From contig JBEKVX010000001.1 of NCBI GenBank assembly GCA_049513595.1, positions 1-48,931 of the forward strand: a stretch of DNA of 48,931 nt, read 5' to 3'. The notes under the pieces are model-generated. The model made no database searches and had not been told where the DNA came from. It saw only the letters and a program-made list of their open reading frames with translations. This DNA comes from Candidatus Staskawiczbacteria bacterium (lineage in GTDB: Bacteria; Patescibacteriota; Minisyncoccia; Minisyncoccales; Staskawiczbacteraceae). The translations under genes and the position numbers were made by a program. Of the stretch, positions 570 through 35,565 are shown one piece after another (positions within the stretch are counted from its first letter, which is position 1; each line of letters begins with the position of its first letter).

Positions 570-1765
570 TGGAAAATAAATCAGAAAATAAAAAGAATAA
601 AAATGTTTTTTATGTCGGCCTTTTAAGTTTTTTTGGCGGGATATCACAGGATATTTTTTCTCCAATTCTGCCGATTTATCTAACTTCAGTTTTGGGATTT
701 GATAAAACCATTGTTGGCGTTGCTGAAGGAATTGTCTCCGCCAGCGTTAGTATCTTCAGAATTGTTGCGGGATTTTTATCTGACAAATTTAAAAAACAAA
801 AACCGATAATTTTTCTGGGATATTTTTTATCAATGGTCTCGCGACCTTTATTGGTTTTTTTTACATCAGCGGGAGCTGTTTTGGGTTTGCGGCTTCTTGA
901 CGGCGCTGGAAAAGGAATTAAAGATACGCCCAAAGATGTTTTGGTTGCCGGCTCGTCTGAAAAAAATGTGCGCGGAAAGAGTTTTGGTATTGCAAGAATG
1001 CTTGATACTATGGGCTCTGTCGCCGGACCATTAATTTTATTTTTTCTTCTTTGGGTTTTTCAAAACAGCAGTACGCTTTACCATGATATTTTACTTTTTA
1101 CAGCGGTTCCTTTAATAATTACTCTTTTATTAATATTTAAACTTAAAGAACTTCCAAAATCACAACTTACAAAAATTGAAGTTCCTCAGGGACCCAAAGG
1201 GTACCCCGGAAAATTTCCGGCATCATTTTATATTTTTATTGCAATAGTAATTATTTTTACTTTGGGAAATTCATCGGACGCATTTTTAATACTTCGCGCA
1301 AAAGGACTCGGGATATCTTTACTAGAAATTCCGCTTGTGATTGCGCTTTTTAATTTAATTTATGCAGGAGCGGCAATCCCATTCGGTTCTCTGTCCGACA
1401 AAATCGGAAGAATTCCCACTCTGGTTATCGGATGGCTGGCCTTTGCAGTTGTATATTTAGGTTTTGCAATTACCACAAGCGCGCTTTCAGTTTGGTTTTT
1501 ATATTGTCTTTATGGAATTTATTATGCCACAAGCGAAGGCGTTTCAAGAGCGTTGCTGGCAGACCTGGTAAATCCAGACCACAGGGGAAGAGCATACGGA
1601 ATTTTTGGAATGGCGGTCGGCTTAACAACTTTGCCGGCGAGCTTTTTTGCGGGCTTTTTGTGGGATAAATTTGGAGCGCCAGTTCCTTTTTATTTCGGTG
1701 CCTCAATGGCATTGCTGGCGTGCATCGCTTTGTTTATCTATTCCAAAAAATTTCTAAAAAAATAA
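569..1765 (+). CDS. MFS transporter (about 12 TM)
   Basis: Long hydrophobic ORF. I chose the internal ATG at 569 (MENKSENKKNK...) because the 530 start overlaps the promoter block. TM-rich throughout, with a D/K-rich loop typical of MFS. Confidence 0.8.
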   Translation: MENKSENKKNKNVFYVGLLSFFGGISQDIFSPILPIYLTSVLGFDKTIVGVAEGIVSASVSIFRIVAGFLSDKFKKQKPIIFLGYFLSMVSRPLLVFFTSAGAVLGLRLLDGAGKGIKDTPKDVLVAGSSEKNVRGKSFGIARMLDTMGSVAGPLILFFLLWVFQNSSTLYHDILLFTAVPLIITLLLIFKLKELPKSQLTKIEVPQGPKGYPGKFPASFYIFIAIVIIFTLGNSSDAFLILRAKGLGISLLEIPLVIALFNLIYAGAAIPFGSLSDKIGRIPTLVIGWLAFAVVYLGFAITTSALSVWFLYCLYGIYYATSEGVSRALLADLVNPDHRGRAYGIFGMAVGLTTLPASFFAGFLWDKFGAPVPFYFGASMALLACIALFIYSKKFLKK

Positions 1766-1782
1766 AATTAAAAAAAGTTTTG

Positions 1783-1803
1783 AATCCGCGAAAGCGGATT
1801 TTT
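1783..1803 (+). terminator. Intrinsic terminator
   Basis: Hairpin aatccgc-gaaa-gcggatt followed by a T run. Confidence 0.7.
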
Positions 1804-1814
1804 AGTTATAGACA

Positions 1815-1843
1815 TTGACACATTTATTTAAAAAATATATCAT
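1815..1843 (+). promoter_or_regulatory. Sigma70-type promoter (TTGACA-17-TATCAT)
   Basis: TTGACA at 1815-1820, a 17-nt AT-rich spacer, then TATCAT at 1838-1843. It points into the GC-rich segment. Confidence 0.6.
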
Positions 1844-1851
1844 TTAATAAC

Positions 1852-2286
1852 GTCTGGCTCTGTTGCGGAATGGTTCTGCGACAAGTTGACCCAGCCAGAT
1901 TGTGCCGGTTTTCCTTTTTGGGAGGATTTGCCATGAAGCGCCGGTTGCACCTGGACATGAAGATTTCGGCCACCACGAAGAAGAAGACGACTGCGGTGCA
2001 CGCGCTGCTCTGACCAAGATCCGGGCCGGGCGGCGTGTGAAGATGCCGTAGGCACCTAGTGTGCCACGGCACGCGGACTACGACGGGAAGACATCTGTCC
2101 ACCGGCAGGTGTCAAAATTACTTCACTAGCAGCTAGCAGCCCCGGTGGATCGGACTGGCTGGCCCGGTGCGGAGGGGCTCCAGATGCGAGCATGAGTGGA
2201 ACGCCGCTTGTCTCAGGGCGCGGGAACTCATCTCCTTCTTGGAGCCCCTCTCGCACTTGTTTGTTCTTATCGCACATTGAAATCGG
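1852..2286 (+). ncRNA. Candidate structured GC-rich leader/ncRNA co-transcribed with the downstream tRNA-like gene
   Basis: No ORF of 60 aa or more on the promoter strand. There is a perfect 10-bp long-range helix, gaggggctcc (2172-2181) with ggagcccctc (2241-2250). Several local hairpins are present, for example gacatctg/caggtgtc. The only coding candidate is a 26-aa ORF at 1933-2013 behind GGGAGGA. Confidence 0.35.
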
Positions 2287-2362
2287 CGGGGCGTAGCTCA
2301 GCGGCTAGAGTGCCATCACCGTAGAAAGGTGGAGGTCGTGGGTTCGAGTCCTACCGCCCCGA
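2287..2362 (+). tRNA. tRNA-like gene with 3 extra nt in the anticodon arm (identity undetermined)
   Basis: Acceptor CGGGGCG/CGCCCCG, D arm TAGCTCAGCGGCTAGAGT and T arm GTGGG-TTCGAGT-CCTAC are all present. Twenty nt sit where 17 are expected. They fold either as CCATC/GGTGG with a 10-nt loop, or as TCACC/GGTGG with loop GTAGAAA plus 3 unpaired nt. Confidence 0.5.
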
Positions 2363-2370
2363 TTTAGGTC

Positions 2371-2396
2371 AACGGCAGACATAAGTGCCGTTTTTT
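2371..2396 (+). terminator. Intrinsic terminator
   Basis: aacggca-gacataag-tgccgtt followed by a T run. Confidence 0.7.
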
Positions 2397-2397
2397 G

Positions 2398-2425
2398 TTG
2401 TAAAAATTTTGAAATATGATATTAT
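2398..2425 (+). promoter_or_regulatory. Promoter P1 (TTGTAA-16-TATTAT)
   Basis: Closely similar to P2 at 2992-3019 and to the tRNA-Ala promoter at 14664-14691. All are followed by AAAAAT(A/T)A. Confidence 0.55.
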
Positions 2426-2440
2426 AAAAATTAAATTGTT

Positions 2441-2508
2441 GGGGTCGTAAGCTGAATAGGAACAGCACCCGAAAGGGAGGTATGTGGGTTCAAATCCTGC
2501 CGACTCCA
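2441..2508 (+). ncRNA. tRNA-like RNA lacking a normal anticodon arm, with a G3:U70 acceptor stem
   Basis: Acceptor GGGGTCG/CGACTCC (G3:T70), D arm GCTG-AATAGGAA-CAGC and T arm GTGGG-TTCAAAT-CCTGC are present. The anticodon arm is replaced by the mini-hairpin CCC-GAAA-GGG. Total length is 68 nt. Confidence 0.45.
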
Positions 2509-2566
2509 CTTGCCAGAATTTACTGGTAAACTTTGTTCGTTGACTTTTAAGGCAGGGAGGTGTCTC

Positions 2567-2908
2567 GTGCTAGACGTAAAATTCATGATAGACAGAAAAC
2601 TACTAGATGAGCTCTGCGCGGAGTCAGCCACGCTGGAGCTTACCGATGGCGACCTAATTGATTCATCGCATAGAGAACGGCTTGGCGGCAGAATAAACGA
2701 CTTGAGAACCGAGCTCCTGACCAGAATGGGCGGTGGCACAATTGAGCCCGGTGATGAATTGGAACTGCAGGGATACGTAGATAGCGTTGTGCGGTCAGTG
2801 AACAGTGGCAAGAAGCAGCCAGCAGACGTGATCAAAAACCAGCGTAATCAGATGGCCAAGATATTGGTCAAAGCATCGCGGATCTCGTTGGCGAAAGCAC
2901 TCTCGTAA
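2567..2908 (+). CDS. Hypothetical small acidic protein (113 aa), paralogous N-terminus to ORF 3352-3549
   Basis: GTG start 6 nt after GGAGGTGTCTC (2556-2566). The start 2510 listed in the track would overlap the tRNA-like gene. Confidence 0.5.
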   Translation: MLDVKFMIDRKLLDELCAESATLELTDGDLIDSSHRERLGGRINDLRTELLTRMGGGTIEPGDELELQGYVDSVVRSVNSGKKQPADVIKNQRNQMAKILVKASRISLAKALS

Positions 2909-2941
2909 ACCGTACATCACGGGCCAATCAAAGGGCGCAAA

Positions 2942-2983
2942 GCGTCAGGGACCTTGGAGATCGTCTTCGGGGTCTGTTTTTTT
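2942..2983 (+). terminator. Conserved 3' element plus intrinsic terminator
   Basis: gcgtcagggaccttg is identical to 3560-3574. The stem gaccttggag/cttcggggtc needs G:U pairs, so it forms only in plus-strand RNA. A T run follows. Confidence 0.6.
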
Positions 2984-2991
2984 ACAAAATA

Positions 2992-3019
2992 TTGCAAAAT
3001 TTTTGAAAAGTAATATCAT
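2992..3019 (+). promoter_or_regulatory. Promoter P2 (TTGCAA-16-TATCAT)
   Basis: Paralogous to P1. Confidence 0.55.
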
Positions 3020-3039
3020 AAAAATAATCTGACACATCT

Positions 3040-3211
3040 GGAACTACGTGCCACGTAGTTCCGAACAAGAAAGGAGGTGTGTCATGACGGGGAAGCTGTG
3101 GTGTTGCTCGGCCATCAACACGTCGTAGGCACAAGAAGATCGCCGAATTGCGTGTAGTGTCCGAGCGGAGCCACTGGGCAGGAAGCGGAGCGTGTCTGCT
3201 CTGCCCAGTGG
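3040..3211 (+). promoter_or_regulatory. Structured 5' leader of tRNA 3217-3290 containing a 14-codon mini-ORF
   Basis: Perfect 10-bp hairpin at 3040-3062. Mini-ORF at 3084-3128 (MTGKLWCCSAINTS) behind AGGAGGTGTGTC. Perfect 11-bp hairpin ccactgggcag/ctgcccagtgg at 3171-3211. Confidence 0.4.
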
Positions 3212-3216
3212 CCAAC

Positions 3217-3290
3217 GGAGACGTAGCTCAGTTGGGAGAGCGCCTGGCGATTAAACCAGGAGGTCGTAGGTTCAACTCCTATCGTCTCCA
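3217..3290 (+). tRNA. tRNA with an 8-nt anticodon loop (CGAUUAAA); identity undetermined
   Basis: Perfect acceptor GGAGACG/CGTCTCC, D arm GCTC-AGTTGGGA-GAGC, anticodon stem CCTGG/CCAGG and T arm GTAGG-TTCAACT-CCTAT. It is 74 nt to the discriminator, so one nt is extra in the anticodon loop (3248-3255). Confidence 0.65.
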
Positions 3291-3351
3291 TTTTAGCCAG
3301 ACCGTCACTGGCGATCAGCTCATTGTTCTCCTTATTTCGTGGAGGTGTCTC

Positions 3352-3549
3352 ATGAACTTCGCAGGCATGACAGACGAAAATCTCCAATCGTGGCTAGATG
3401 ACCTTACAGAAGAAAGAGATGTGCTCGATGAGCGCAAATTTCCTTGGGCCGCACTTTCTTATGACCAACAAATCGCCGCGCTAGAGCAAGAACTCCAAGG
3501 GAGGAAATCTCCTGAGAGCTCGACACTTCAAGCGACTGCGACTGCGTAA
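3352..3549 (+). CDS. Hypothetical small acidic protein (65 aa)
   Basis: ATG 6 nt after GGAGGTGTCTC (3341-3351). The longer track ORF from 3148 runs through the tRNA and is rejected. Confidence 0.5.
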   Translation: MNFAGMTDENLQSWLDDLTEERDVLDERKFPWAALSYDQQIAALEQELQGRKSPESSTLQATATA

Positions 3550-3559
3550 GGCGCGATTC

Positions 3560-3606
3560 GCGTCAGGGACCTTGAAGTTGAAGTTCAGCTTCGGGTCTAT
3601 TTTTTT
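3560..3606 (+). terminator. Conserved 3' element plus intrinsic terminator (paralog of 2942-2983)
   Basis: gcgtcagggaccttg, then stem gaccttgaag/cttcgggtc, then a T run. Confidence 0.6.
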
Positions 3607-3635
3607 GTTTTTTTAGAATTGCGCATAGAAACCAC

Positions 3636-3664
3636 TTGACTTTTGGTTTTTTTAGGTCTAAAAT
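3636..3664 (+). promoter_or_regulatory. Promoter (TTGACT-17-TAAAAT) upstream of grpE
   Basis: Hexamers at 3636-3641 and 3659-3664. Confidence 0.5.
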
Positions 3665-3807
3665 ATAGAATATAAATAAAAATTTAAAGCAAAATATGCC
3701 CTTTACGAAACGAGGCAAATATTATTACAGCCCAAGCGGCAGAAAATTTACAAAAAAACAAGTAGCTTTATATTACGCCACTCAGGGATTTAGGAAAAAA
3801 CCAAAAA

Positions 3808-4376: not shown

Positions 4377-4384
4377 ACCGTCGG

Positions 4385-4402
4385 TGATATAATAAATTTA
4401 TA
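4385..4402 (+). promoter_or_regulatory. Extended -10 promoter TGATATAAT 8 nt before ATG 4402 (leaderless mRNA predicted)
   Basis: The same block as 553-569. Confidence 0.5.
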
Positions 4403-4674
4403 TGAAAAAAAGTTATTATCAATTAGAAAGAATCGTCAAAGGTGTTGCAAACCATCGGCGGATTGAGATTTTGGAATTATTAAAAATAAATCCAGAATTA
4501 TCTTTGGAAAATATTTCAAGAAAATTAGGCGTTAATTTCAAAACCATATCCGAACACATCAAAAGGTTGGCGGCAGCAGGATTTGTTTTGAAAAGATACG
4601 AGGGTCACAACGTCCGACACAAAATAACAAATAGAGGTTCGGTTATTCTTAAGTTCTTGAGAACTTTGGAATAA
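4402..4674 (+). CDS. ArsR/SmtB-family winged-helix transcriptional regulator
   Basis: 90 aa. NHRRIEILELL...LSLENISRKLGVNFKTISEHIKRLAAAG is a typical ArsR HTH. Confidence 0.75.
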   Translation: MKKSYYQLERIVKGVANHRRIEILELLKINPELSLENISRKLGVNFKTISEHIKRLAAAGFVLKRYEGHNVRHKITNRGSVILKFLRTLE

Positions 4675-4814
4675 ACGAAACGAATTATATTATGATTGAA
4701 CAGTACGAAAAGCAATTCGGCGAAATAAAAACCCAGTTGCCAGTAATGAATAATAAAAACACAACCGAGGACTCAAAATTAGGATTTTAAATATTAAAAA
4801 GTTATTAGATAAAT

Positions 4815-5345
4815 ATGGAGGAACAAAAAATTCAGCTTGATGGGATTCATTGGTGTTTGTATTCATCTGGTGATATTGAACCATTATGCCCTAAACATAA
4901 TCTAAGATTAAGACCGGGTGATGAAGCACGACGTTTTCATTGGGATTACACAGAATTATATTGCGAGGAATGCGCTAAGCCGTATACTCTGCCACGATAC
5001 TATTCTAAAGAGACACAATATATTCGCGACAAAATAGATTCTAAAGAATTTAAGTCGCTCAAATTAATTAATTTAGATGACGAAGCCATTCCTTTGGCAG
5101 AGGATAAAGTTAAAACAAAGGACGGTAAATATTTTGTTACCGCTCTACTAACGGAATCGAAAGTTGGAAAAAGATTGGTTATTTATGCTGGAGAAAAGGG
5201 TAAAAATGAAAAATGTCAGATTTTTGTCGAGCCAGAAGTGAGGAGACTTTCATTTGATCAAAAAGATATTCACCCTAATGACGTTTTTCTAGAAGTTCAA
5301 GCTAAATTCAAAGATGGCGGAACTCATCAAATAAAAAATAATTAA
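4815..5345 (+). CDS. Hypothetical protein with an N-terminal CPxH...CxxC zinc-ribbon-like motif
   Basis: 176-aa ORF with Cys pairs (LCPKH ... CEEC). No family recognised. Confidence 0.5.
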   Translation: MEEQKIQLDGIHWCLYSSGDIEPLCPKHNLRLRPGDEARRFHWDYTELYCEECAKPYTLPRYYSKETQYIRDKIDSKEFKSLKLINLDDEAIPLAEDKVKTKDGKYFVTALLTESKVGKRLVIYAGEKGKNEKCQIFVEPEVRRLSFDQKDIHPNDVFLEVQAKFKDGGTHQIKNN

Positions 5346-9597: not shown

Positions 9598-9966
9598 ATG
9601 GGGACATACAAAGATTTAGATGTTTTTAAAAGATCCTACAAATTGGCAATAGAAATGCATCAGTTTTCCCTGAAATTACCAAAAACTTTTCAGTACGATT
9701 TATCAGACCAAATTAGAAGAGCTTCTCGGTCTATTCCTTCAAATATAGCAGAAGGATATAGCAGGAATAAATCTTTCAAGGACAAAGTAAATTTCTTAAA
9801 TACCGCACTAGGGTCAAACGAAGAAGTATTATTCAATTTGGATTTTATAAAAGATTCTGACATGGTTGATAATAAGGATATCGACAAATTCCGCCAAGAA
9901 TATGTTATTTGTGGTAAACAACTTAACAATTTGATAAAAAGTTTAAAACCGGCGAACGAAAACTAG
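9598..9966 (+). CDS. Four-helix-bundle protein (the family often encoded in 23S rRNA intervening sequences)
   Basis: 122 aa with the motif pattern DLxV...L..Q.RRAS.SI..NIAEGY.R....D...FL..ALGS..E. Confidence 0.75.
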   Translation: MGTYKDLDVFKRSYKLAIEMHQFSLKLPKTFQYDLSDQIRRASRSIPSNIAEGYSRNKSFKDKVNFLNTALGSNEEVLFNLDFIKDSDMVDNKDIDKFRQEYVICGKQLNNLIKSLKPANEN

Positions 9967-12720: not shown

Positions 12721-13818
12721 ATGATAAACAAAGGCGTCGCCACATTTACATTGGATTATGGAAAGTGCCCGAAGTGGCTTTTTGACAGAATGGTTTTGCT
12801 TTCCAAAAGAATGATTTACGCGATTATTGCCGAAGAAGGGCCTGACGAATTTATAAAAAGAATTTCAGACCCTGTATGGTTTCAATCATTGGGAACTGTT
12901 TTGGCTTTTGATTGGAATGCATCTGGTTTAACAACAATTTTGACAGCGGCATTAAAAGAGGCAATTCGCGGAAGCGAAAGGGACTTAGGAATTTTTATTT
13001 GCGGGGGAAAAGGAAAAACATCGCTGAAGACGCCAGAGCAAATAATAAATTGGGCAGAAAGAATTGCCATGCCAGAAAAATCAGCTAATGCCTTGGTTTA
13101 TAATTCTAAAATGGCTGCCAAGGTTGACAGCTCGCTGGTTCAAGACGGATTTCAAATTTATCATCACAGTTTTTTCTTTTCAAAAAACGGCGCGTGGACA
13201 GTTGTCCAGCAGGGAATGAATATCCAGGAGCAATCAGCGAGAAGATACCACTGGTATTCAAAAGAAGTAAAGGACTTAATTGAAGAGCCGCATTCAGGAA
13301 TTACCAGCGATTTAAAAATAAAAAATGTTTTGAATATGACTGCCAACAAATCTAAAGAGAATAGGGGATTGAGCACTGAATTGGTCTCGCAAAGTTTTAA
13401 CACCTTGATGAAAGATATAACTTTATTGAGAAAATATTATACGCCGCTGTCACAAACTTTGTCGGTTCAAAAGGGAAAAGAACAACTAACCTTATTAAAT
13501 TTAGAAAACAAAGAATTTTATTGGCATCCGGTGGTGCACGAGGATTTTTCAAAATCAAAATATTTAGAAAAAATTTTGTGGCGATTGTGCGACCAGCAAC
13601 CGGGAAATTATGAAAAACTTTTGGCAACGCCGGGGGTTGGGCCCAAAACAATTCGGGCTTTGGCTTTGGTTGCTGAAGTAATTTATGGAGCAAAACCATC
13701 TTACGAAGACCCTGCGCGATATTCTTTTGCACATGGAGGAAAAGATGCCACACCATATCCGGTTGACCAGCCAACCTATGACCAGACCATAGAAAAGTTG
13801 AAATCTTTTATTAAATAA
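12721..13818 (+). CDS. DUF763-family protein
   Basis: The N-terminus GVATFTLDYGKCPKWLFDRMV resembles the conserved start of DUF763 proteins, from memory. There is a C-terminal HhH-like GVGPKTIRALALVAE. Confidence 0.55.
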   Translation: MINKGVATFTLDYGKCPKWLFDRMVLLSKRMIYAIIAEEGPDEFIKRISDPVWFQSLGTVLAFDWNASGLTTILTAALKEAIRGSERDLGIFICGGKGKTSLKTPEQIINWAERIAMPEKSANALVYNSKMAAKVDSSLVQDGFQIYHHSFFFSKNGAWTVVQQGMNIQEQSARRYHWYSKEVKDLIEEPHSGITSDLKIKNVLNMTANKSKENRGLSTELVSQSFNTLMKDITLLRKYYTPLSQTLSVQKGKEQLTLLNLENKEFYWHPVVHEDFSKSKYLEKILWRLCDQQPGNYEKLLATPGVGPKTIRALALVAEVIYGAKPSYEDPARYSFAHGGKDATPYPVDQPTYDQTIEKLKSFIK

Positions 13819-14777: not shown

Positions 14778-14851
14778 GGGCCCATAGTAAACCGGTATTA
14801 CGCCTCCATGGCATGGAGGAAGACGGGGTTCAATTCCCCGTGGGTCCACCA
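14778..14851 (+). tRNA. tRNA-Ala (anticodon GGC), CCA encoded
   Basis: Acceptor GGGCCCA/TGGGTCC with G3:U70, anticodon loop ATGGCAT, T loop TTCAATT, 3' ACCA. Confidence 0.9.
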
Positions 14852-23636: not shown

Positions 23637-24128
23637 TTACGATGTTTTAGACAATGTCTTTGCCATTTCCAGCCATTTTGGCTGGCGCGGCCTGTTTTTA
23701 TATTTTGCAGATGACTTATGAATTTCTATAAGAGTGCACAAATCATTTTTTTTCCAGGCGGCCAAATATTTTCCTTTATTTTTTTGAATTATCTCAACTC
23801 CTTTTGCCCAAAGTTCAAAATCCTTTTTCTTTTTATTAGCCAAACAATTTTTCCGGAAAAATGGCACAACAGTTTCTGCAATATCGCTTATCTTCTGCAC
23901 CGAAAACCTTGCCTGGTCTTTTGATACGCAAATTTCTCCGCAGGCCATCTTGTTTTTTATTTTTTCTAGAACTTTTATATTTCCTTTCGGCGAAGTTATC
24001 ACAAACTGCGCTTTCCACCTGTAATAAGTCGGGGCATTGGTGCGCTCGTGCCTTGTATCTTTTCTAAACTGCAAATCAAAACATCCATCGTTATTTACTA
24101 TACTTGAAATGCTAAATTTTTCTGCCAT
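23637..24128 (-). CDS. LAGLIDADG-type homing endonuclease-like protein (free-standing)
   Basis: N-terminal IVNNDGCF resembles the LAGLIDADG/DGDG motif. The central pattern FSV....D....VVPFF.K..L...K..DFELW and the ...IH.....KN tail match this family's fold pattern as I recall it. Confidence 0.5.
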   Translation of the reverse strand: MAEKFSISSIVNNDGCFDLQFRKDTRHERTNAPTYYRWKAQFVITSPKGNIKVLEKIKNKMACGEICVSKDQARFSVQKISDIAETVVPFFRKNCLANKKKKDFELWAKGVEIIQKNKGKYLAAWKKNDLCTLIEIHKSSAKYKNRPRQPKWLEMAKTLSKTS

Positions 24129-24922: not shown

Positions 24923-25897
24923 TCAGCTTTTTTTGTCTGGATCGCTATGAAATTGATGGTGGATATCGCGGAGGCGTTTGTTGGTTACGTGCGTATAAAT
25001 TTGGGTTGTGGCAATATTGCTGTGGCCCAGGAATTCCTGGATGGAGCGCAGGTCAACGCCTTGATTTAATAAATCTGTTGCATATGAGTGTCGCAACGTG
25101 TGGGGAGTGGTAAAAATTGGTACGCCGGAAAGCAGGGCGTATTTTTTAACCATTCTTTCAATTGAGCGTGGCGTAAGTCGGGCGTCTGTATCGTCTTTTT
25201 TATCGCGGAAGTTTATGAACAAGGCCTTTTGATTGGCGTGTTTGATATCGTTTCTTATTTCAAGATATTTTTTAATGAAGTTTAATGCGCGCTCAGAAAA
25301 ATAAACCACGCGTGGCTTACCGCCCTTACCAATAACACCCAGCTCCATATCTTTTTTATTTTTCAAACTATTAAATTGCTCAAGATTTAAGGATACTAAT
25401 TCGGCTATTCTTAAACCGGTTGAAAAAAACGCCTCTAAAATAGCCCTGTCGCGGGCGCTTATATCGTCTTTTGGCTCAATGGATGATAAAAGCTTGCCAA
25501 TCTGCTCTAAACTAAGGAATTTCACGCTTTTTGAGCCCCTATCTGGCTTTGAGAGCGAGATTTTATCCGGAGGCAGCGAAAGTACGTCTTTAGCCACAAA
25601 ATAGCCCAAAAAGGCCCTTAAAGCGATTAAATAGTAGTTCTGGGTGCCTTTTGACAGCAATTTGCCCGTAGCTGGGCTGGGCGTCCTGGAAAGGTACAAA
25701 CGATAGGTCCATATATGATCCGAGGTCAACTGATGGGGGAGTAAAGAGCCCAATTTAGCATGGTCCAACCAATGAAAAAACTTTTCCAAATAATTTTTAT
25801 AATTCTCTTGAGTATTTTTTCTCAAACCTTTTTCAACTTCGCAAAAATCCAAAAAATCTTGCAGGTGTTCTTTTATTGGTTTTGATGATTTTTCCAT
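24923..25897 (-). CDS. Tyrosine recombinase, XerC/XerD family
   Basis: GLRIAEL (Arg I), HTLRHSYAT (HxxR) and LGHSNIATTQIYTHV (His/Tyr). 324 aa with an N-terminal SAM-like core-binding domain. Confidence 0.88.
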   Translation of the reverse strand: MEKSSKPIKEHLQDFLDFCEVEKGLRKNTQENYKNYLEKFFHWLDHAKLGSLLPHQLTSDHIWTYRLYLSRTPSPATGKLLSKGTQNYYLIALRAFLGYFVAKDVLSLPPDKISLSKPDRGSKSVKFLSLEQIGKLLSSIEPKDDISARDRAILEAFFSTGLRIAELVSLNLEQFNSLKNKKDMELGVIGKGGKPRVVYFSERALNFIKKYLEIRNDIKHANQKALFINFRDKKDDTDARLTPRSIERMVKKYALLSGVPIFTTPHTLRHSYATDLLNQGVDLRSIQEFLGHSNIATTQIYTHVTNKRLRDIHHQFHSDPDKKS

Positions 25898-29088: not shown

Positions 29089-30209
29089 GAATTTTTTGAA
29101 ATGTTTAGTAATAATCCGATGCCGAAAAGTTCAACTGCCAGATGTGAGCCGCCGTAGGAAAAAAATGGCAATGGAATCCCCGCTAACGGAAAAATTCCCG
29201 CCACCGAAGCCATATTTACAAATGCCTGAAAAGTTATCCAGACAACAATTCCTATGGCTGTCATTTTTGAAAATTTATCGTTTGTGTTTTTTGCAATCTG
29301 AATTCCCAGCCAGAAAAATAAAATAAAAATTGCTATTAATGCAACGCAACCGACTATGCCGAACTCTTCTCCGATAATTGCAAAAATTGAATCGGACATT
29401 GCCTGCGGCAAAATAAATTTTTCAACTGACATTCCCAAGCCCTTGCCAAAAATTCCACCTGATCCCAAAGAAATTAAGGACTGGCTCAGCTGGCGCCCTT
29501 TGCCCAGCGGATCTGCGCCTGGATGCAAAAAAATAAACCAACGGTCGAAACGGTACGGCTCAAATTTTATCAGACAGAATAAAATAATAACTCCAGAAAC
29601 AATTATCAATAAAGTGTGCCACAGGGGAGTTTTTGCAGAAAAATACAAGACAAGAAGGGTGATGGCAATAATTCCCAATGTGCTGATGTCGCTTTGAAAA
29701 TATAGCGCAACAGCAATGATGCCTAAAAAAATTGCGAAAGGAACAAGTATATATATTATATTATGATAACCTTTTTTTGTAATAGATTTCCAGTCCGACA
29801 CATTTGCTTCAGACAATTTAGAAGCAATCCAGGCAGACAAATATAAAATTGCCGTAATTTTTAAAAATTCCGACGGCTGCAGGGTTATGCTTCCGATTCC
29901 AATCCAGCGGCTGGCGCCCCCGACTTTAGAGCCAATTTTTGGCAAAAAAACCAAGAACAATGCAAAAAGATTCAAAAGAAATAACCAAAATGCCCACTTT
30001 TTTAAAAATCGCAGGGAAATTTTATAACCGATAAAACCTAAAATAACTGCTGGCAAAAGCCCGAAAAGCAGCTGGTGAAACAAGTAATAGTTTGTATTTC
30101 CAAATTTTTGCAAAGAAGACGATGCCGACAAGCAGGCAAAAAACAAAAAACTGAAACCAATCGTAAAAACAATCAAAAAAAATAAAAAATAATTAAAATG
30201 TTTTTTCAC
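29085..30209 (-). CDS. ftsW: SEDS-family peptidoglycan glycosyltransferase FtsW/RodA
   Basis: Polytopic, with C-terminal PLPFFSYGGS. The stop overlaps the murG start (ATGA). Start uncertain: I prefer GTG 30209 over ATG 30338, because the latter overlaps the upstream gene by 146 nt. Confidence 0.85.
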   Translation of the reverse strand: MKKHFNYFLFFLIVFTIGFSFLFFACLSASSSLQKFGNTNYYLFHQLLFGLLPAVILGFIGYKISLRFLKKWAFWLFLLNLFALFLVFLPKIGSKVGGASRWIGIGSITLQPSEFLKITAILYLSAWIASKLSEANVSDWKSITKKGYHNIIYILVPFAIFLGIIAVALYFQSDISTLGIIAITLLVLYFSAKTPLWHTLLIIVSGVIILFCLIKFEPYRFDRWFIFLHPGADPLGKGRQLSQSLISLGSGGIFGKGLGMSVEKFILPQAMSDSIFAIIGEEFGIVGCVALIAIFILFFWLGIQIAKNTNDKFSKMTAIGIVVWITFQAFVNMASVAGIFPLAGIPLPFFSYGGSHLAVELFGIGLLLNISKNS

Positions 30210-32736
30210 TTTTTGAGAACTTTTTAATTGCCGACTGATACTGGTCGCCTTTTTCCTCAAAATTTTTCCATAAAGAATAACTTGGCGATGCGCATGAAAG
30301 CAGACAAGTTTTGCCTGGTTTTGTATATTTATACGCAAACTTAACAGCTTGTTCCATACTCTCTGTCTTAAGAATATTTAATCCCGTTAATTTTATTCTT
30401 TTGCCGCTGTCTGGGAAAAGTACGGCATTCTTTATTTTATATTTTTTTATTATTTTTTCCAACTGCGAAAAATCATATCCTCTGTCTTTGCCTCCCAAAA
30501 AAATTGTATCAACATCTTTTAATGCCTTAATCGCCATTATAGTTGATTCGGGAGTTGTTGAAATTGCGTCGTCGTAAAATTTAATATTTTTAAATTTTCC
30601 CACAAATTCCAGGCGGTGCGGCAATGGTTTAAAATTTTCAATTGCTGTCTTTATAATTTTATCTGAAATGCCGAGTTCTTTCGCAACTGCGACAGCAGCC
30701 CTTATGTTTTCTTTGTTGTGCCCGCCTATCAACTGTAAATTAACGCCATCAATAAAACTTTCATTCGCGAACGGAACAACTTTTGCTCTTGCTTCTTTCG
30801 CCCAGGCGACCAATTTTTTATTTTTTGGATTATAAACAAATACATTGTTTTTATTTTGAAAATTAATTATATTTTTCTTTGCATCATAATAATTTTCAGC
30901 TCCTTTATGATAATCCATGTGTTCTGGAAATAAATTTGTCACAACTGCTATATCTGGCGAAAACTCAATATCATCTAATTGATAACTGGAAAGCTCTAAA
31001 ACAAAAATTTGGTCTTTTTTTATTGGCTTTAACAAAGCATCAAGCATAGGATTTCCGATATTTCCCAAAATTTTTACATTTTTTCCGGCTTCTTTCAAAA
31101 TAAAATAAATTAACGAGGTTGTAGTTGATTTTCCTTTGCTTCCTGTAATTCCAATTATTTTATTTTTTCCTAAAATTTTTGAAAAGAAAATATTTGTGGC
31201 TGTTGTGTAGGGTATTTTAAGCAGATTTTTTGGAATTCCCGGAGTTTTTATGGCAATATCAAAGGAATTTTGTTTTTTAAGATAGTCATCGCTAAATTTT
31301 TCATCTGCAATGCCAATCTTCAAACCAGGATAATTTTTTTCAACATATTTTTTTGAAACCTCGCCTTCTCTGCCATAACCCAAAATTAAAACATTTTTCA
31401 TGCCAGAAAACTTAAACTGGCTGGGAATATTTTGCGCTGATTGGGCTTTTAATAGCTTTTCTGCAGCTTCTTTTTCGATTTTTATTTTTGGCAGAAGATT
31501 TTTTACAATAAAATCGTCTTTAAATTTTTGGGCACCGGAAATAAATGCTGTTTTTGACTCTTCAAAAGTTCCGACGCAATCAAACGGCTTCATTTTTCCA
31601 ATGCCCAAAATATCTTTGAATAAAGATAAAAGATTTTCATCCTGGTAGAGATTTTTTTTGAAGATACCCAACAATTCTTTTTTTGTTAAAAAAGCAGAAA
31701 GTAAAGTAAAAACAAAAACGCATTTCGGGCATTGGCCGCACCAAAGACCCTTTGAAGCGCCCTTTTGGTCGTTTTTGACTAGTTTAAAATTTTTATTGCA
31801 GGAAGAAAAATATGGAAAATATTTTTTATAGTTTGAAAATAATTCTGCGATTCTTATTTCGTAAAACGGCCTTAACAAAGAAAAATATTTTACGCTTGGA
31901 GAAATAAAATTATAAATATAGTCCGAAAAAAGATTTTCAAACTCTGATGATTTTGACCACTGGTGGTTTATTAAGCGGCCTTTGTATTTTATGTTTCCAA
32001 AATTGCTGCTGTATTCGTTGGCAACCGCAAAATAAGAATATTTATACAAAACAGCACATAGAATTCCTGAGAAAGCGTATATTGCAGAAATCGGTATGTG
32101 GCCGTCGTATTTGTGTTTTTGGAAAACCTGCCAGTCCAAAAAGCGCTGAATTTTCAAAAATTTTACGCCCACTTCTCTTGCGACGCCGTCAACCAAATCG
32201 TACTTGGGGCACCCTTTGGGTCTTGTTTCTGTAAAAATTGTTGTGATGTCAATCCCCTGCTCTTTTAATAATTCGGCGGCAACAATTGAGTCCTTTCCGC
32301 CAGATAACGCAACCAGACATTTATTATTTTTTTCTAAATTATAATTTTCTGGTTTTACATTTTTATCATAAGGAAATTTGGGAGATTTTTTCGGATCTAA
32401 CTTATTTCTGAAATAAAATTCTCCCAAGCCATCTTTATAAATTGTATTCCAAAAATCCGCCTCTTTTTTTGAAATAGCATAAGGAATTTTTACTTTTGTC
32501 GCACAATAAAATTTATAATAACTCACACCGGATACAAGATGCAAACTTTCTAAAAGTTTGCTGAACAATTTATTGGAAACGTTTTTTAGGTCAAGGGTTT
32601 CAGGCAAAATTATTGTCTCCGTAAAAATGAAAGGGGTTTTGCCATCAAATTCCTGTTTGTAATTAAAAAAAATCCTTTTTTTCTCAGGTTCAAATTTGTA
32701 TGAGGTAAACTCAAAAATAGTGGCTTTGGCCTCCAT
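30193..32736 (-). CDS. murD: Fusion protein: N-terminal PP-loop ATPase-like domain (possibly MurL-like) plus C-terminal UDP-MurNAc-L-Ala--Glu ligase (MurD)
   Basis: SGGKDS PP-loop at 32287-32310. The MurD part begins near 31401 (MKNVLILGYGREG ... ITGSKGKSTTT). It is a single 847-aa ORF. Confidence 0.8.
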   Translation of the reverse strand: MEAKATIFEFTSYKFEPEKKRIFFNYKQEFDGKTPFIFTETIILPETLDLKNVSNKLFSKLLESLHLVSGVSYYKFYCATKVKIPYAISKKEADFWNTIYKDGLGEFYFRNKLDPKKSPKFPYDKNVKPENYNLEKNNKCLVALSGGKDSIVAAELLKEQGIDITTIFTETRPKGCPKYDLVDGVAREVGVKFLKIQRFLDWQVFQKHKYDGHIPISAIYAFSGILCAVLYKYSYFAVANEYSSNFGNIKYKGRLINHQWSKSSEFENLFSDYIYNFISPSVKYFSLLRPFYEIRIAELFSNYKKYFPYFSSCNKNFKLVKNDQKGASKGLWCGQCPKCVFVFTLLSAFLTKKELLGIFKKNLYQDENLLSLFKDILGIGKMKPFDCVGTFEESKTAFISGAQKFKDDFIVKNLLPKIKIEKEAAEKLLKAQSAQNIPSQFKFSGMKNVLILGYGREGEVSKKYVEKNYPGLKIGIADEKFSDDYLKKQNSFDIAIKTPGIPKNLLKIPYTTATNIFFSKILGKNKIIGITGSKGKSTTTSLIYFILKEAGKNVKILGNIGNPMLDALLKPIKKDQIFVLELSSYQLDDIEFSPDIAVVTNLFPEHMDYHKGAENYYDAKKNIINFQNKNNVFVYNPKNKKLVAWAKEARAKVVPFANESFIDGVNLQLIGGHNKENIRAAVAVAKELGISDKIIKTAIENFKPLPHRLEFVGKFKNIKFYDDAISTTPESTIMAIKALKDVDTIFLGGKDRGYDFSQLEKIIKKYKIKNAVLFPDSGKRIKLTGLNILKTESMEQAVKFAYKYTKPGKTCLLSCASPSYSLWKNFEEKGDQYQSAIKKFSKSEKTF

Positions 32737-32802: not shown

Positions 32803-35565
32803 TTAAGCGTTAGATGAAAGGCGCCTGAACACCACAACAAATAAAAATATCAGCACAAGTGCCACTAAAATCCACAGATACCATCGTTTTAAGAATGCCC
32901 AAAAACCCGATGTTGACTGAGTAGAAGAAACTGATGCAGCAGCAGCCTGGCTTGGAATTAAGTTAATTGAAACAGAGTCGGACTGCGCGGGACCCGTAGA
33001 AACATTACTTGTGGCAACTGCCTGTTCTGTTGCCTGGGTTGAAATTGTCTGGGTTTTGCCTTCAAAAGTTATTGATTTTGCGCCTCCAGGAGTTAAAGAC
33101 CCGATGCTTACGCCAGAAACAATGTCGCCCGAAACTAAGACGCCATTAATCTGTAAGTTTCCCAACGAAGTAACCTCGTTTGGAATATTTGCCGAAATGT
33201 TTACATTATTTACCTGGCTTGCCGAATTATTTACAACAGAAATCATAAAATAAACCTGTCCGTTAGAACCGACCTGAACTGTTTTCTGCCATTGTGTAGA
33301 ATTTTGGTCTTGTTTTGCAAAAAATGAAACTGACAAGGTGCTTACATTATTGCTGACATTATTATTGTTATTATTGCTGTTATTGCTGGAGTTATTGTTG
33401 TTATTATTAGTATTGCTATTATTGTTGCTTGAGCAATAATTATTATAATCAGCAGAGCCGGCGGCGCAGGTTGTGCCGTCGCATTTTATAGTATTAGAAC
33501 ATTGTCCGCCAATACAACTGTCTAAAGTACAACTATTGCTGTCTGCGCAGCTCTTGTACAAAGTATTCGCTCTTCCGAGAGAGTCATACCAATAAAGGTT
33601 GTTTGAGTAACAAGCGGTTTTGTAGTGAGCTACGTAAGAAGGATTATATACTATAGGAACAATAATTTGCTGATATGATATAGTGCATATGCCATATTGA
33701 CAGGTCGTGTTGACGCCGGCGCAGGTTTGAAAGAGGTCTTGCTGACCGCCGCATGAGTCGTACCAATAGATATTATTTCCTACGCATAGTTTATAAGCGT
33801 GATAAGTGCAATTTCCATACGGATTATATGGGGTGTATGAGCACGAATTGTTGTAGCATCCGTTCTGACAGTATTGCGACTGGCTTTCTTGGTTGCCACA
33901 TGAATCGTACCAATACAAATAATTTCCACTGCATCTTTGGTATGAGTTTTGTGTGCAGTTATTATTGTTTGTGCATGCACTGCCCGAACATCCATTCTGG
34001 CAATATTGAATCAAACTCTGTTGAACCCCGCACGAATTGTACCAGTAAAGATTATTGCCGACACATTGTTCATACGAATTAGATGTACAAGGGTTAAGGT
34101 ATACACAGATGTTGCCAGCGCATCCATTGGGGCAGTACTGCGCCTGGCCTTGCTGGTTGCCGCATGAGTCGTACCAGTACAAATAGTTGCCTTGACATTG
34201 CTGATATGAATTTTGCGTGCAGTTGGTGCCACAACTTCCATTAGAACATGTTTGGTTTCCCGTGCACGTGGTTTTTAACTGAGGAGCTGTGTTGTTTGAG
34301 CAGTACGAAGTACCTGTACCAGGGTTGTTGCAAGTGTAAGTGATGTAATTTTGATAAACATTGTTACCTTGGCAGAAAGGCGAGCCGATGTATGCGTTGG
34401 TGCCGCAGTCAGTGTTGGCTGTACACGTTATTGTCTGGTTGGTGCACGAACCGCCAGAACATATCTGGTTCCCCGTACACGTTGTCTTTAATTGCGAAGC
34501 AGTGTTGTTTGAGCAATATGAACTTGGTGTTCCTGCGTTGTTGCAGGTGTATGTGATATAGTTTTGATAAACGTTGTTGCTTGAACAATATGGCGAGCCG
34601 GTGTAGGTGTTGGTGCCGCACTGAGTGTTGGAGCTGCAGGTGATATTTGGACTTGGACATTGTCCTTGGCTTACCACATTTGTGCCGGCTTGAATTGCCA
34701 AACATGAGTTGCAATAAGTTCTTCCGTCTGCGCCACAAACATATACGCAATACAAAGGACAAATTATATTGCCGCACGAGCCGCCAGAACAGGTTTGGCT
34801 GGTAGTGCATTGCTGGTAAAGAGTCCCCTGATTTCCGCAAGAATCAAAATTATAAACAGAATTACCGACGCATCGTTTTGAGGCATTCGGAGAGCATGAA
34901 TATATGCATTGGGCGTTTGTACAGGTTTGGCTTGTCGTACACTGCTGAAATAAATCTTGCTGGACTCCGCAAGAATCAAACCAATAAACAACGCTACCAA
35001 CGCATTTTTTAGAATCGTGCGAGATGCAACTGGGCGTCGGCGAATTAATATTTCCTGAGAAATCGCACTTGTACGCGCCGTTGTTATCAAAGTAATAGCC
35101 GTCAATGTCCACAACATAAATATAAGCTGATGTCGCTCCGGCAGGCACAGAAATCGCGCTATTTAATGCGGCAGAAACCGGAACTTGCTGAATCAGCACA
35201 GTTGCATTATTGTAAAATCCAATTTGCACGGCTCCGCCATCGGTACAATTATGTAAAAAACCTTCCTCGCATCCGTAATATGTATTCCAAACGCAGGTTC
35301 CTGCAGTTTCATATCTAGTACAATAATTTCCCGTGATGGCATTTAATTCCAACATATCTCCTGGATGCAAATTGTTGGAAATTAAAATTGGACTTCTTGC
35401 GCATTGTTGTCCGGCTTTTGAAAATGGCGCCTCTAACGCGTTTACGCTTCCGGAAAAATTAATCGTGGAAGCTTTTGCGGCTTGCGGAGCAATTATTGCA
35501 GAAAACAAAATTGCCGAGCATAAAACCAGGCCGCTAATTACGAATATCTTTAAAAATGTATTCAT
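32803..35565 (-). CDS. Large secreted cysteine-rich repeat protein with a Kazal-like domain, poly-Asn tract and C-terminal TM anchor
   Basis: It has a signal/TM at the N-terminus. Roughly nine modules of about 40 aa follow (C..NSY..C.GN.LYWYDSCG.QQ...QYC.NGC). There are two repeats of about 70 aa, VCGADGRTYCNSC (Kazal-like), an N/S-rich tract and a hydrophobic C-terminus. Confidence 0.8.
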   Translation of the reverse strand: MNTFLKIFVISGLVLCSAILFSAIIAPQAAKASTINFSGSVNALEAPFSKAGQQCARSPILISNNLHPGDMLELNAITGNYCTRYETAGTCVWNTYYGCEEGFLHNCTDGGAVQIGFYNNATVLIQQVPVSAALNSAISVPAGATSAYIYVVDIDGYYFDNNGAYKCDFSGNINSPTPSCISHDSKKCVGSVVYWFDSCGVQQDLFQQCTTSQTCTNAQCIYSCSPNASKRCVGNSVYNFDSCGNQGTLYQQCTTSQTCSGGSCGNIICPLYCVYVCGADGRTYCNSCLAIQAGTNVVSQGQCPSPNITCSSNTQCGTNTYTGSPYCSSNNVYQNYITYTCNNAGTPSSYCSNNTASQLKTTCTGNQICSGGSCTNQTITCTANTDCGTNAYIGSPFCQGNNVYQNYITYTCNNPGTGTSYCSNNTAPQLKTTCTGNQTCSNGSCGTNCTQNSYQQCQGNYLYWYDSCGNQQGQAQYCPNGCAGNICVYLNPCTSNSYEQCVGNNLYWYNSCGVQQSLIQYCQNGCSGSACTNNNNCTQNSYQRCSGNYLYWYDSCGNQESQSQYCQNGCYNNSCSYTPYNPYGNCTYHAYKLCVGNNIYWYDSCGGQQDLFQTCAGVNTTCQYGICTISYQQIIVPIVYNPSYVAHYKTACYSNNLYWYDSLGRANTLYKSCADSNSCTLDSCIGGQCSNTIKCDGTTCAAGSADYNNYCSSNNNSNTNNNNNNSSNNSNNNNNNVSNNVSTLSVSFFAKQDQNSTQWQKTVQVGSNGQVYFMISVVNNSASQVNNVNISANIPNEVTSLGNLQINGVLVSGDIVSGVSIGSLTPGGAKSITFEGKTQTISTQATEQAVATSNVSTGPAQSDSVSINLIPSQAAAASVSSTQSTSGFWAFLKRWYLWILVALVLIFLFVVVFRRLSSNA

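Follow-up and report, generated by a model that had tools for sequence, protein, structure and literature searches.

We examined a 48,931-nt stretch of DNA (contig JBEKVX010000001.1; hereafter the window), which is a piece of the chromosome of a Candidatus Staskawiczbacteria-like Parcubacterium from the candidate phyla radiation (CPR, or Patescibacteria). At 2441..2508 on the plus strand, the window contains a 68-nt element, read directly from the sequence, that resembles a tRNA without an anticodon arm. Most likely, this element is a functional gene whose product is a tRNA-Ala derivative that does not decode, and it belongs to a small family at one syntenic locus. The family is found in Ca. 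Staskawiczbacteria-like Parcubacteria, between a block with MFS, FKBP, or LiaF genes and hrcA-grpE-dnaK-dnaJ. We judged the element to be beyond chance mainly because eleven further loci have the same architecture with compensatory base changes. The initial annotation of this DNA had described a tRNA-like RNA with G3:U70 and no anticodon arm, which is confirmed by direct reading, by the minimum free energy (MFE) fold, by a match to the tRNA model in Rfam, and by the homologs. The parts of the element, all on the plus strand, are:

2441-2447, plus strand: 5' strand of the acceptor stem, GGGGUCG
2448-2450, plus strand: UAA between the acceptor and the D stem
2451-2454 and 2463-2466, plus strand: D stem of 4 bp, GCUG/CAGC, with an 8-nt loop (AAUAGGAA) that contains a GG like G18-G19
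2467, plus strand: a single A after the D arm
2468-2477, plus strand: mini-hairpin in the place of the anticodon arm, with CCC (2468-2470), GAAA (2471-2474), and GGG (2475-2477)
2478-2483, plus strand: variable region, AGGUAU
2484-2488 and 2496-2500, plus strand: T stem, GUGGG/CCUGC, with two G·U pairs
2489-2495, plus strand: T loop, UUCAAAU
2501-2507, plus strand: 3' strand of the acceptor stem, CGACUCC
2508, plus strand: discriminator base A73

G3 (2443) lies opposite U70 (2505) and forms the wobble pair of the 7-bp acceptor stem. CCA is not encoded at the 3' end: A73 is followed by CUU. The MFE fold is exactly the cloverleaf, at -24 kcal/mol, with a z-score of -2.0 that is modest by itself. 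The Rfam tRNA model (RF00005) matches 2441..2508 end to end (model positions 1-71) with 35.6 bits, versus a gathering threshold of 29, and with E = 7e-4 for the whole window; it is the best-scoring model of its Rfam clan. So, the element has a tRNA-level score, a 7-bp acceptor stem, a D arm, and a T arm with a T loop. What it lacks is the decoding part. In the Rfam alignment, it has 4 nt for the 11 model positions in the anticodon loop region, and instead of a 5-bp stem and a 7-nt loop (with U33, an anticodon at 34-36, and a purine at 37), it has a 3-bp stem capped by GAAA. ARAGORN makes no tRNA call at 2441..2508. The identity elements of tRNA-Ala are all present: G3·U70, A73, and G2:C71, and also G1:C72. 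The identity set for alanyl-tRNA synthetase (AlaRS) is G3·U70 with A73 and G2:C71, and minihelices suffice as substrates (PMC9976931, PMC11392972).

We searched for members of the family by synteny through GrpE, by a DNA pattern for the 3' end, by structural scans, by a covariance model, and by the downstream open reading frame (ORF). This gave 12 members: the one in the window and those at 11 other loci (L-numbers are our labels for relative loci, and L144 is the same as L214). Where a locus is long enough to show its gene content, the member sits 5' of hrcA/grpE, in the same interval. The GrpE proteins of these lineages are only ~60-80% identical. The structure that replaces the anticodon arm differs between lineages:

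Window, 68 nt: CCC-GAAA-GGG, 3 bp
L130, 76 nt: CCGCAC-UCUUU-GUGCGG, 6 bp
L150, 77 nt: CCCUGC-GAAA-GCAGGG, 6 bp
L148, 72 nt: CCCCGC-UAA-GCGGGG, 6 bp
L210, 70 nt: CCCC-GCAGU-GGGG, 4 bp
L144 (L214) and L156, 75-76 nt: irregular stem of ~8 bp with ACGU
L153, 84 nt: 7 bp with a 13-nt loop
L125, 74 nt: CUUGG-CAGAAUA-CCAAG, 5 bp, without U33
L132, 42 nt: no arm; the acceptor, 10 nt, and the T arm only (a minihelix)
L139 and L005, 113 and 146 nt: branched inserts of 81-114 nt

Ten short members have kept an arm, and in these the substitute is a closed, stable hairpin; a GAAA tetraloop occurs in two of the members (the window and L150). Nowhere among the 12 do a length of 7 nt, U33, a purine at 37, and an alanine anticodon come together in one loop. 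For L130, a 7-nt loop with U33 (CUCUUUG) is one possible drawing, but this would give CUU as the anticodon and U at position 37. ARAGORN forces Lys(CUU), Arg(ACG), and Gly(CCC) on three orthologs and Leu(UAA) on L148; because these calls disagree, there is no consistent anticodon in the family. By comparison, the same genomes show normal conservation of their genuine tRNA-Ala(GGC) and tRNA-Lys(UUU). We ruled out a decoding tRNA, as a canonical anticodon loop is found in no member. We also note that the 7-nt loop of the L125 copy (3428..3501), CAGAAUA, would read Phe codons if it decoded.

The initial annotation had suggested a check for covariation across homologs, and this check, with the eleven further loci, found the same architecture and compensatory base changes. 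Because MAFFT misaligned the D arm of the full-length members, we used a three-sequence covariance model and a gap-free alignment of the minihelix instead. In the minihelix alignment of 10 members, 97.5% of cells at the 12 acceptor and T-stem pairs are paired (a value inflated by the design of our scans, as discussed below). Six of the 12 pairs change on both sides: 1:72 (G:C or A:U), 5:68 (U:A or C:G), 7:66 (G:C or A:U), 50:64, 51:63, and 52:62. The covariation score was 0.365, versus a mean of 0.213 for shuffled alignments, and none of 500 shuffles reached it. In controls with slid partners, pairing dropped to 36-60%. G2:C71, G3·U70, and A73 are invariant in all 12 members. Among the ten tabulated members, G4:C69 and C6:G67 are invariant as well, as are T54, T55, C56, A58, and T60 of the T loop; L125 has U6·G67 instead of C6:G67. 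G1:C72 is found in the window and most other members, with A1:U72 in L144 and L156, and at the D-stem pair 13:22, the window and L150 have G:C where the other members have C:G. L139 has one mismatch in the acceptor and L005 has a weak T stem. These patterns show apparent selection to preserve the coaxial minihelix of the acceptor and T arm, the T loop, A73, and the block G2:C71-G3·U70-G4:C69. Selection on the helix is best supported by the fact that the compensatory changes fall between loci whose homology is established independently, from synteny, promoter, flanking motif, and ORF.

When the anticodon arm is left out, the L148 member shares ~88% identity with an ordinary tRNA-Ala(CGC) of L105. 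This points to descent of the family from tRNA-Ala, and not from transfer-messenger RNA (tmRNA). Like tRNA-Ala, the members have a 7-bp acceptor with G3·U70, G2:C71, and A73, a D arm with GG, and a T arm with a TΨC-type loop; they also have their own promoter and, like the other tRNAs of the genome, a U-rich trailer without CCA. (The window's own canonical tRNA-Ala, with a GGC anticodon, is at 14778..14851.) Unlike tRNA-Ala, they lack the 5-bp stem with a 7-nt loop, U33 (which can be drawn only in L130), and an alanine anticodon. In place of that arm they have a capped hairpin of variable length or nothing, and a small ORF is usually co-transcribed. Also, the A1:U72 pair of two members is unlike known tRNA-Ala, in which G1:C72 is universal (PMC9976931).

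The surroundings of the element resemble a transcription unit, with its own predicted promoter, a leader of at most 10 nt, a terminator upstream, and, in most members, a small ORF and a terminator downstream. The features of this unit in the window are:

2371..2397, plus strand: intrinsic-terminator-like hairpin and T run (stem 2371-2392, tail TTTTGTTGTA), which ends the preceding Pro-type tRNA-like gene
2398..2425, plus strand: predicted sigma-70-type promoter, TTGTAA, a 16-nt spacer, and TG-n-TATTAT (extended -10)
2509..2529, plus strand: trailer with CUU (no CCA) and then a hairpin, GCCAG-AAUUUA-CUGGU (2510-2529), with a T tail too weak to make it a convincing terminator
2536..2545, plus strand: the motif YTCRTTGAVW, here TTCGTTGACT, in the 5' untranslated region (UTR) of the small ORFs
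2555-2560, plus strand: ribosome-binding site (RBS), GGGAGG
GTG at 2567 or ATG at 2585 to the stop at 2908, plus strand: small orphan ORF of 113 or 107 amino acids, a divergent member of family A (see below)
2949..2985, plus strand: strong intrinsic terminator with a 12-pair stem and T7, the end of the unit

Because the terminator at 2371..2397 ends the previous gene, the element's unit stands apart. The predicted transcription start is ~5-10 nt 5' of G1. Promoters of the same type, TTGCAAAA...TAATATTAT, lie directly 5' of the members in L130, L150, L144, L005, L148, and L125, and L132 has TTGATA...TATAAT; promoters are thus conserved across these lineages. Most members have their own promoter, a CCA-less U-rich trailer, and a small orphan ORF in the same unit. 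At the position of the trailer hairpin, L148 and L210 have an unrelated hairpin and the other members have none. In L130, a terminator comes directly 3' of the copy without any ORF between, which shows that the RNA can exist as a gene by itself. The motif YTCRTTGAVW occurs about once per 35 kb in general, yet it lies 6-28 nt past A73 in 7 of 11 members. We assigned it to the 5' UTR of the ORFs because it also precedes a family-B ORF (see below) in L156, where no tRNA-like element lies upstream of that ORF. For the same reason it is not part of the RNA element, and it is not a promoter, as its spacing to the RBS is too short (in L210). An ORF on the minus strand at 2431..2835 (134 amino acids, TTG start) also covers the element; it is probably spurious, since it overlaps both the conserved RNA gene and the plus-strand ORF of family A.

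In 10 of the 12 members, an RBS and a small ORF are found ~50-65 nt 3' of the element, and these ORFs belong to two unrelated families. Family A, which includes the window's ORF (2567/2585-2908, probably co-transcribed with the element), is restricted to this clade and has only 7 clusters in a database of 5.8 billion proteins. AlphaFold 2 (AF2) predicts a confident four-helix protein for a member of family A, and it has no match in Pfam, NCBIfam, or a fold search of the PDB. Family B (~81 amino acids) is highly conserved (consensus ...ERYVFLYDDASRAETLRVLGRFASNPELSFTWYDAAVLSQKIR...), with 5497 clusters from Planctomycetota, Patescibacteria, and others. It has no match in Pfam, NCBIfam, or sequence and fold searches of the PDB. 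Family B is found at L153 4004..4234, L132 5578..5850, L150 5302..5568, and L156 564..788 (the ORF with the UTR motif and no element), as well as in P0128-P0247, L217, and L225-L230. In one other lineage of Patescibacteria (CPR), it lies directly upstream of alaS, which encodes a short AlaRS of 582 amino acids, while in three independent Planctomycetota-like contexts it lies between an orphan gene and a XerC/D-type recombinase. Because the adjacency to alaS did not recur, we do not claim that family B is linked to AlaRS.

The element is not the only odd tRNA-like gene at this locus. A stretch of ~2 kb, 1766..3807, separates the MFS gene from grpE in the window, and it holds a structured leader, a Pro-type tRNA-like gene, the element, and another tRNA, amid small ORFs, promoters, and terminators:

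1815..2285, plus strand: promoter TTGACA-17-TATCAT and a GC-rich, non-coding, structured leader of ~440 nt
1934..2014: ORF of 26 codons within this leader
2286..2362, plus strand: Pro-type tRNA-like gene (C1:G72, A73) with a 10-nt loop, ACCGUAGAAA; ARAGORN reports "tRNA-Ser(aga) at position 37"
3085..3129: ORF of 14 codons (MTGKLWCCSAINTS), 5' of the tRNA at 3217
3217..3290, plus strand: tRNA with an 8-nt anticodon loop, CGAUUAAA, and A3:U70; ARAGORN reports a 4-base anticodon, "atta"
3352..3549: ORF 3' of the tRNA at 3217, with the same RBS context (GGAGGTGTCTC) as behind the element and then a start codon

Relatives of the Pro-type gene are found in L003 (9332..9406, loop UUAGGGA), L005 (7558..7635, loop CUUUGGG), L004 (8993..9062, 5-nt loop GAGUU), and L131 (~4960..5110, with an insert of ~70 nt in the D loop). 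Their anticodon loops are not conserved between loci, and those in L003 and L004 also have an RBS and short ORFs on their 3' side. As for the tRNA at 3217..3290, we saw no ortholog in the relatives. Its 3' half is similar to that of the element, and the initial annotation had considered that the element might be a degenerate paralog of it. The common 3' half stands, but the tRNA at 3217 is itself aberrant, with its 8-nt loop and A3:U70, and the element appears to be under purifying selection across species.

A leader like that of the window, of 440-600 nt with the same type of promoter, is found in L210 (1390..1850), L148 (~4380..4800), L156 (~1560..1995), L005 (6960..7556), and L003 (8790..9290). 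A long hairpin, GUGCGGAGGGGCUC...GGAGCCCCUCUCGCAC, is conserved in the leader's last ~130 nt (~2160..2262 in the window) and shows compensatory changes. In the relatives, the leader contains mini-ORFs of 9 codons behind GGAGACCCCAGAKATG, such as MIARRALIV and MNAMSVKAV. The leader has no match in Rfam, and it could be an RNA controlled by a leader peptide or a non-coding RNA. Another GC-rich, structured, non-coding region, of ~300 nt, is found at L003 8360..8670, between GGAGCUGGCAGG and CCUGCCGGCUCC and then a T run. It is superficially like RNase P RNA and has no Rfam match at E ≤ 1.

The top half of a tRNA is where RNase P, RNase Z, the CCA-adding enzyme, and AlaRS act, and the RNA would therefore most likely be excised, CCA-tailed, and alanylated. 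RNase P would trim the short leader, RNase Z would cut after A73 (the trailer is U-rich and CCA is not encoded), the CCA-adding enzyme would complete the 3' end, and AlaRS, for which the G3·U70 acceptor helix is enough, would charge the RNA with alanine. Without an anticodon loop, the Ala-RNA would not be selected at the A site by codon reading. Unable to read codons, it would then act outside of normal decoding. It might donate alanyl groups, or it might serve as a ligand for, or titrate, a factor that binds the top half of tRNA. Excision would also set the 5' end of the mRNA for the small ORF. We consider the chances roughly even that the element is processed like a tRNA and charged by AlaRS, yet does not decode. 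This is close to what the initial annotation had suggested, an alanine-accepting RNA that cannot decode, and it is the best fit to the comparative data: the identity set is found in 12/12 members, a decoding loop is found in 0/12, and one lineage has just the minihelix. Charging itself is a prediction. More speculatively, these could be natural genes for a "minihelix-Ala," that is, a dedicated top-half tRNA, charged with alanine and non-decoding, that feeds alanine into a process that is not directed by codons, such as alanylation of the cell envelope, template-free addition of alanine to C termini, or rescue of stalled ribosomes. We are rather doubtful about this bolder version.

Several observations weigh against an alanylated RNA. 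Our scans demanded pairing and G3·U70, which inflates the percentage of paired cells and means that homologs without G3·U70 would have been missed; and the paralog at 3217, with A3:U70, shows that such copies exist. The statistics for 3:70 are weak: there are ~8 inferred substitutions elsewhere in the acceptor, the 12 lineages are closely related, and variation is absent from 5 of the 12 pairs. That 3:70 does not change is thus a suggestive sign of selection and not a statistically decisive one. Among the ORFs of the 48.9-kb window, a scan with Pfam and PHROGs found no gene of the Fem/MurM type or the MprF type and no SmpB, and the region of the element was found in no RNA-seq run that we searched. 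Finally, bacterial ProRS requires the anticodon, yet the loops of the Pro-type genes are scrambled, a hint that the locus as a whole could be explained by a structural role that does not depend on charging. It is mainly these neighbors that keep such a rival alive.

One charge-independent role would be "tRNA punctuation," in which the minihelix is only a module for RNase P and RNase Z (and a promoter) that releases or stabilizes the mRNA of the small ORF, and G3·U70 is a leftover. This would account for the RBS and small ORF behind 10 of the 12 members, for two unrelated ORF families in one arrangement, for the scrambled Pro-type genes that likewise precede an RBS and short ORFs (in L003 and L004), for the same layout and the identical RBS context (GGAGGTGTCTC) at the tRNA at 3217 with its A3:U70 and 8-nt loop, and for the conservation of the acceptor/T-arm half, which is all that RNase P and RNase Z require. 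We think it is unlikely, as the high-scoring copy in L130 is directly before a terminator with no ORF, and the ORFs do not need the element because the family-B ORF in L156 has the UTR motif without one. Also, a wobble pair without a purpose should drift to G:C or A:U, and G3·U70 is present in 12/12 members while three Watson-Crick pairs have been replaced by double changes. If instead the unprocessed leader mimicked the acceptor helix of tRNA-Ala, then free AlaRS could control the translation or stability of the ORF's mRNA, much as at the thrS operator, except that this synthetase reads just the acceptor stem. The element's position at the 5' end of the mRNA, the conservation of only the half that AlaRS recognizes, and the family-B ORF directly 5' of alaS in another Patescibacteria lineage would all fit. 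But the adjacency to alaS is not recurrent and the three Planctomycetota-like contexts differ; the alaS locus has no tRNA-like element, with a hairpin between the family-B ORF and alaS; the distance from the element to the RBS varies (~30-60 nt), and we saw no conserved pairing with the RBS; and the L130 copy lacks an ORF. An AlaRS-binding operator is therefore quite improbable. We give a small chance to the idea that the element is a neutral relic, in other words a redundant isoacceptor gene for tRNA-Ala, now without function, that is decaying slowly after the loss of its anticodon. The center of the molecule does evolve by indels and replacement, L139 and L005 have flawed helices, the locus is rich in other aberrant tRNA-like genes, and the family is limited to a narrow clade. 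Nevertheless, six compensatory pair changes keep the helices, promoters are kept across lineages whose GrpE proteins have diverged to ~60-80% identity, the substitutes for the arm are closed stable hairpins in ten short members rather than random sequence (with GAAA twice), and the T loop is invariant. From these comparisons, a decaying pseudogene seems unlikely.

The initial annotation had also alluded to the tRNA-like domain of tmRNA, and a derivative of tmRNA that consists of just this domain, or an RNA with a similar role, has precedents (PMC11915505, PMC4131195). The family and many tmRNAs have in common G3·U70/A73, the T arm, and the 3' end GGGTTCAAWTCCnnnCGACTCCA; the long form in L005 has a weak match to the Rfam tmRNA model (18 bits, E = 1.3e-3, versus a gathering threshold of 47); and the 42-nt form in L132 resembles the bare domain. 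Yet the element has a true 4-bp D stem, with UAA-GCUG...CAGC where a tmRNA would have its 5' segment (GGAUUCGAC), and a tRNA-type variable loop, with AGGUAU before the T arm. A tmRNA is marked by GG-A/N-UUCGAC behind the acceptor and by GGAC ahead of the T arm; the element has neither, and genuine domain-only minis have both. In the window, nothing matches a tmRNA family of Rfam at the gathering level, and the best member of the clan is tRNA. There is no plausible frame for a tag: 68 nt is too short, the L005 insert has GCA-AAC-UGA, and the L139 insert has no in-frame stop. Moreover, Patescibacteria normally have a standard tmRNA (5252 calls in 6765 genomes). Together with the apparent ancestry from tRNA-Ala, this rules out a tmRNA or a domain-only derivative of it in the strict sense, and we consider any such origin or role very improbable. 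The resemblance to tmRNA holds as an analogy only.

Domain-only derivatives of tmRNA are known from the mitochondria of jakobids, from the plastids of Mallomonadaceae (~65 bp), and from mycobacteriophage DS6A, and the DS6A-type molecule is thought to titrate SmpB (PMC4131195, PMC11915505). Like members of our family, they are short RNAs with an alanine-identity acceptor and a T arm, without an anticodon or a tag frame. They derive from tmRNA, they lack a D stem but have an analog of the D loop with GGAUUCGAC, and their T arm is preceded by GGAC; unlike them, our family derives from tRNA-Ala, has a D stem, and is chromosomal, in a phylum with standard tmRNA. We also came across genuine domain-only minis in L013, L022, L066, L074, L119, L252, and L255, each of which has a 5' segment of the GGAUUCGAC type as well as GGAC ahead of its T arm. 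Their lengths are 81 nt (L013/L041), 78 nt (L022 and L066), 79 nt (L074), and 80 nt (L119), with 80 and 78 nt in the viral contigs L252 and L255. The layout, GGGGUCG-n-GGnUUCGAC ... short hairpin ... GGAC-T arm-CGACUCCA, occurs in metagenomes and in viral contigs from IMG/VR. Such minis seem to be more common than the literature suggests, and they resemble the reported DS6A form.

Other systems are similar in part. In Firmicutes, non-decoding tRNAs include the tRNA-Gly species of Staphylococcus that are used by FemXAB and the "tRNA-Other" of Bacillus cereus. Like these pseudo-tRNAs, our family consists of chromosomal paralogs of a tRNA that would be diverted from decoding, whether as aminoacyl donors or as regulators. 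The pseudo-tRNAs of Firmicutes keep a complete anticodon arm and have known partners (Fem transferases; LysRS1/2), while no such partner was found in this window. The synthetic minihelix-Ala and microhelix-Ala, engineered as minimal substrates of AlaRS, correspond to the family's conserved core, a 12-bp acceptor/T-stem helix with G3·U70, the T loop, and A73, and the 42-nt gene of L132 is nearly a minihelix-Ala with a 10-nt bulge. Those are laboratory constructs, whereas the family consists of natural genes with a predicted promoter and predicted charging. The SpF41 small RNA of Streptococcus (RF02435) has a similar consensus, with an acceptor-like stem, a tetraloop hairpin, a T-arm-like hairpin with GGUUCGAAUCC, and a terminator. 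The element scores 20.7 bits against this model (E = 2.1; gathering threshold of 52), so it is not a member, and we found no literature on a tRNA-like function of SpF41.

We noticed a few other unusual alanine tRNAs. L026 encodes (13263..13335, minus strand) a tRNA with alanine identity (G3·U70) whose anticodon is CUA; it is a putative suppressor of amber codons, at which alanine would be inserted. In very AT-rich contigs, tRNA-Ala(GGC) genes with insertions of 15-30 nt in the region of the D arm are found at L023 957..1061 and L049 10424..10513.

The gene content of the window is chromosomal. It encodes an MFS transporter, GrpE, DnaK, DnaJ, CTP synthase, GluRS, an Asp/AsnRS-type synthetase (Pfam tRNA-synt_2), and TyrRS, as well as MurG, FtsW, MraY, and Mur ligases, ribosomal protein L9, UppS, and an S41 protease, among others. 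The nearest named relatives of its GrpE are from Ca. Staskawiczbacteria, and in its relatives the gene order is MFS (or FKBP/LiaF), a small HrcA-like regulator, grpE, dnaK, and dnaJ. We rejected a phage origin, given this gene content (GrpE-DnaK-DnaJ, mur/ftsW, aminoacyl-tRNA synthetases, and L9) and an empty megablast search against phages. In IMG/VR, there was no match for a neighboring protein, nor for a DNA pattern that was too specific. The sequence of the window is also present in peat and wetland metagenomes. Contigs from peat metagenomes that align to the region of the element give thin coverage, with no informative variants. One of these, a contig of 151 nt that matches 2430..2466 of the window, has a promoter (…GTAATATTAT) like that of the element, agrees with the element's 5' half except for 4 mismatches, and then diverges into unrelated sequence (GCCTTGATTTTTGAC…); it may be another strain or species with a different center, or an assembly fragment. 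A review mentions irregular tRNA polycistrons in metatranscriptomes from peat soil (PMC7609411).

Elsewhere in the window, the mur/ftsW cluster includes a protein of 847 amino acids (30193..32736, minus strand) in which an N-terminal PP-loop ATPase-like domain (tRNA_Me_trans/PAPS_reduct HUP) is fused to the middle and C-terminal domains of a Mur ligase. It adjoins a protein of 920 amino acids (32803..35565, minus strand) with no match in Pfam or PHROGs. The window also encodes a free-standing LAGLIDADG endonuclease (23637..24128, minus strand), a XerC/D-type recombinase (24923..25897, minus strand), a LigT-type 2H phosphoesterase of the 2'-5' RNA ligase family (44414..44983, minus strand), and, directly 5' of a tRNA-Lys, a 23S-rRNA-intervening-sequence protein (9598..9966, plus strand).

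Known relatives of tRNA that do not decode include tmRNA, the tRNA-Gly of the staphylococcal cell wall, the tRNA-Other of B. cereus, and the tRNA-like structures of viruses. In the literature, we found no description, from CPR or elsewhere, of a chromosomal bacterial family that keeps only the half of tRNA-Ala that AlaRS recognizes, with the anticodon arm capped or deleted. Tools for finding tRNAs mis-annotate the genes of this family as tRNA-Lys, -Arg, -Gly, or -Leu, which distorts inferences about the tRNA sets and codon usage of metagenome-assembled CPR genomes. If these RNAs are charged in vivo, they would be the first natural substrates of AlaRS of the minihelix type, and they would indicate that ultra-small CPR bacteria, which are understood largely through inference from their genomes, put Ala-RNA to a use that has gone unrecognized. 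And if they are indeed natural versions of minihelix-Ala, then they would be a living counterpart of the minihelix that has been proposed as the ancestor of tRNA.

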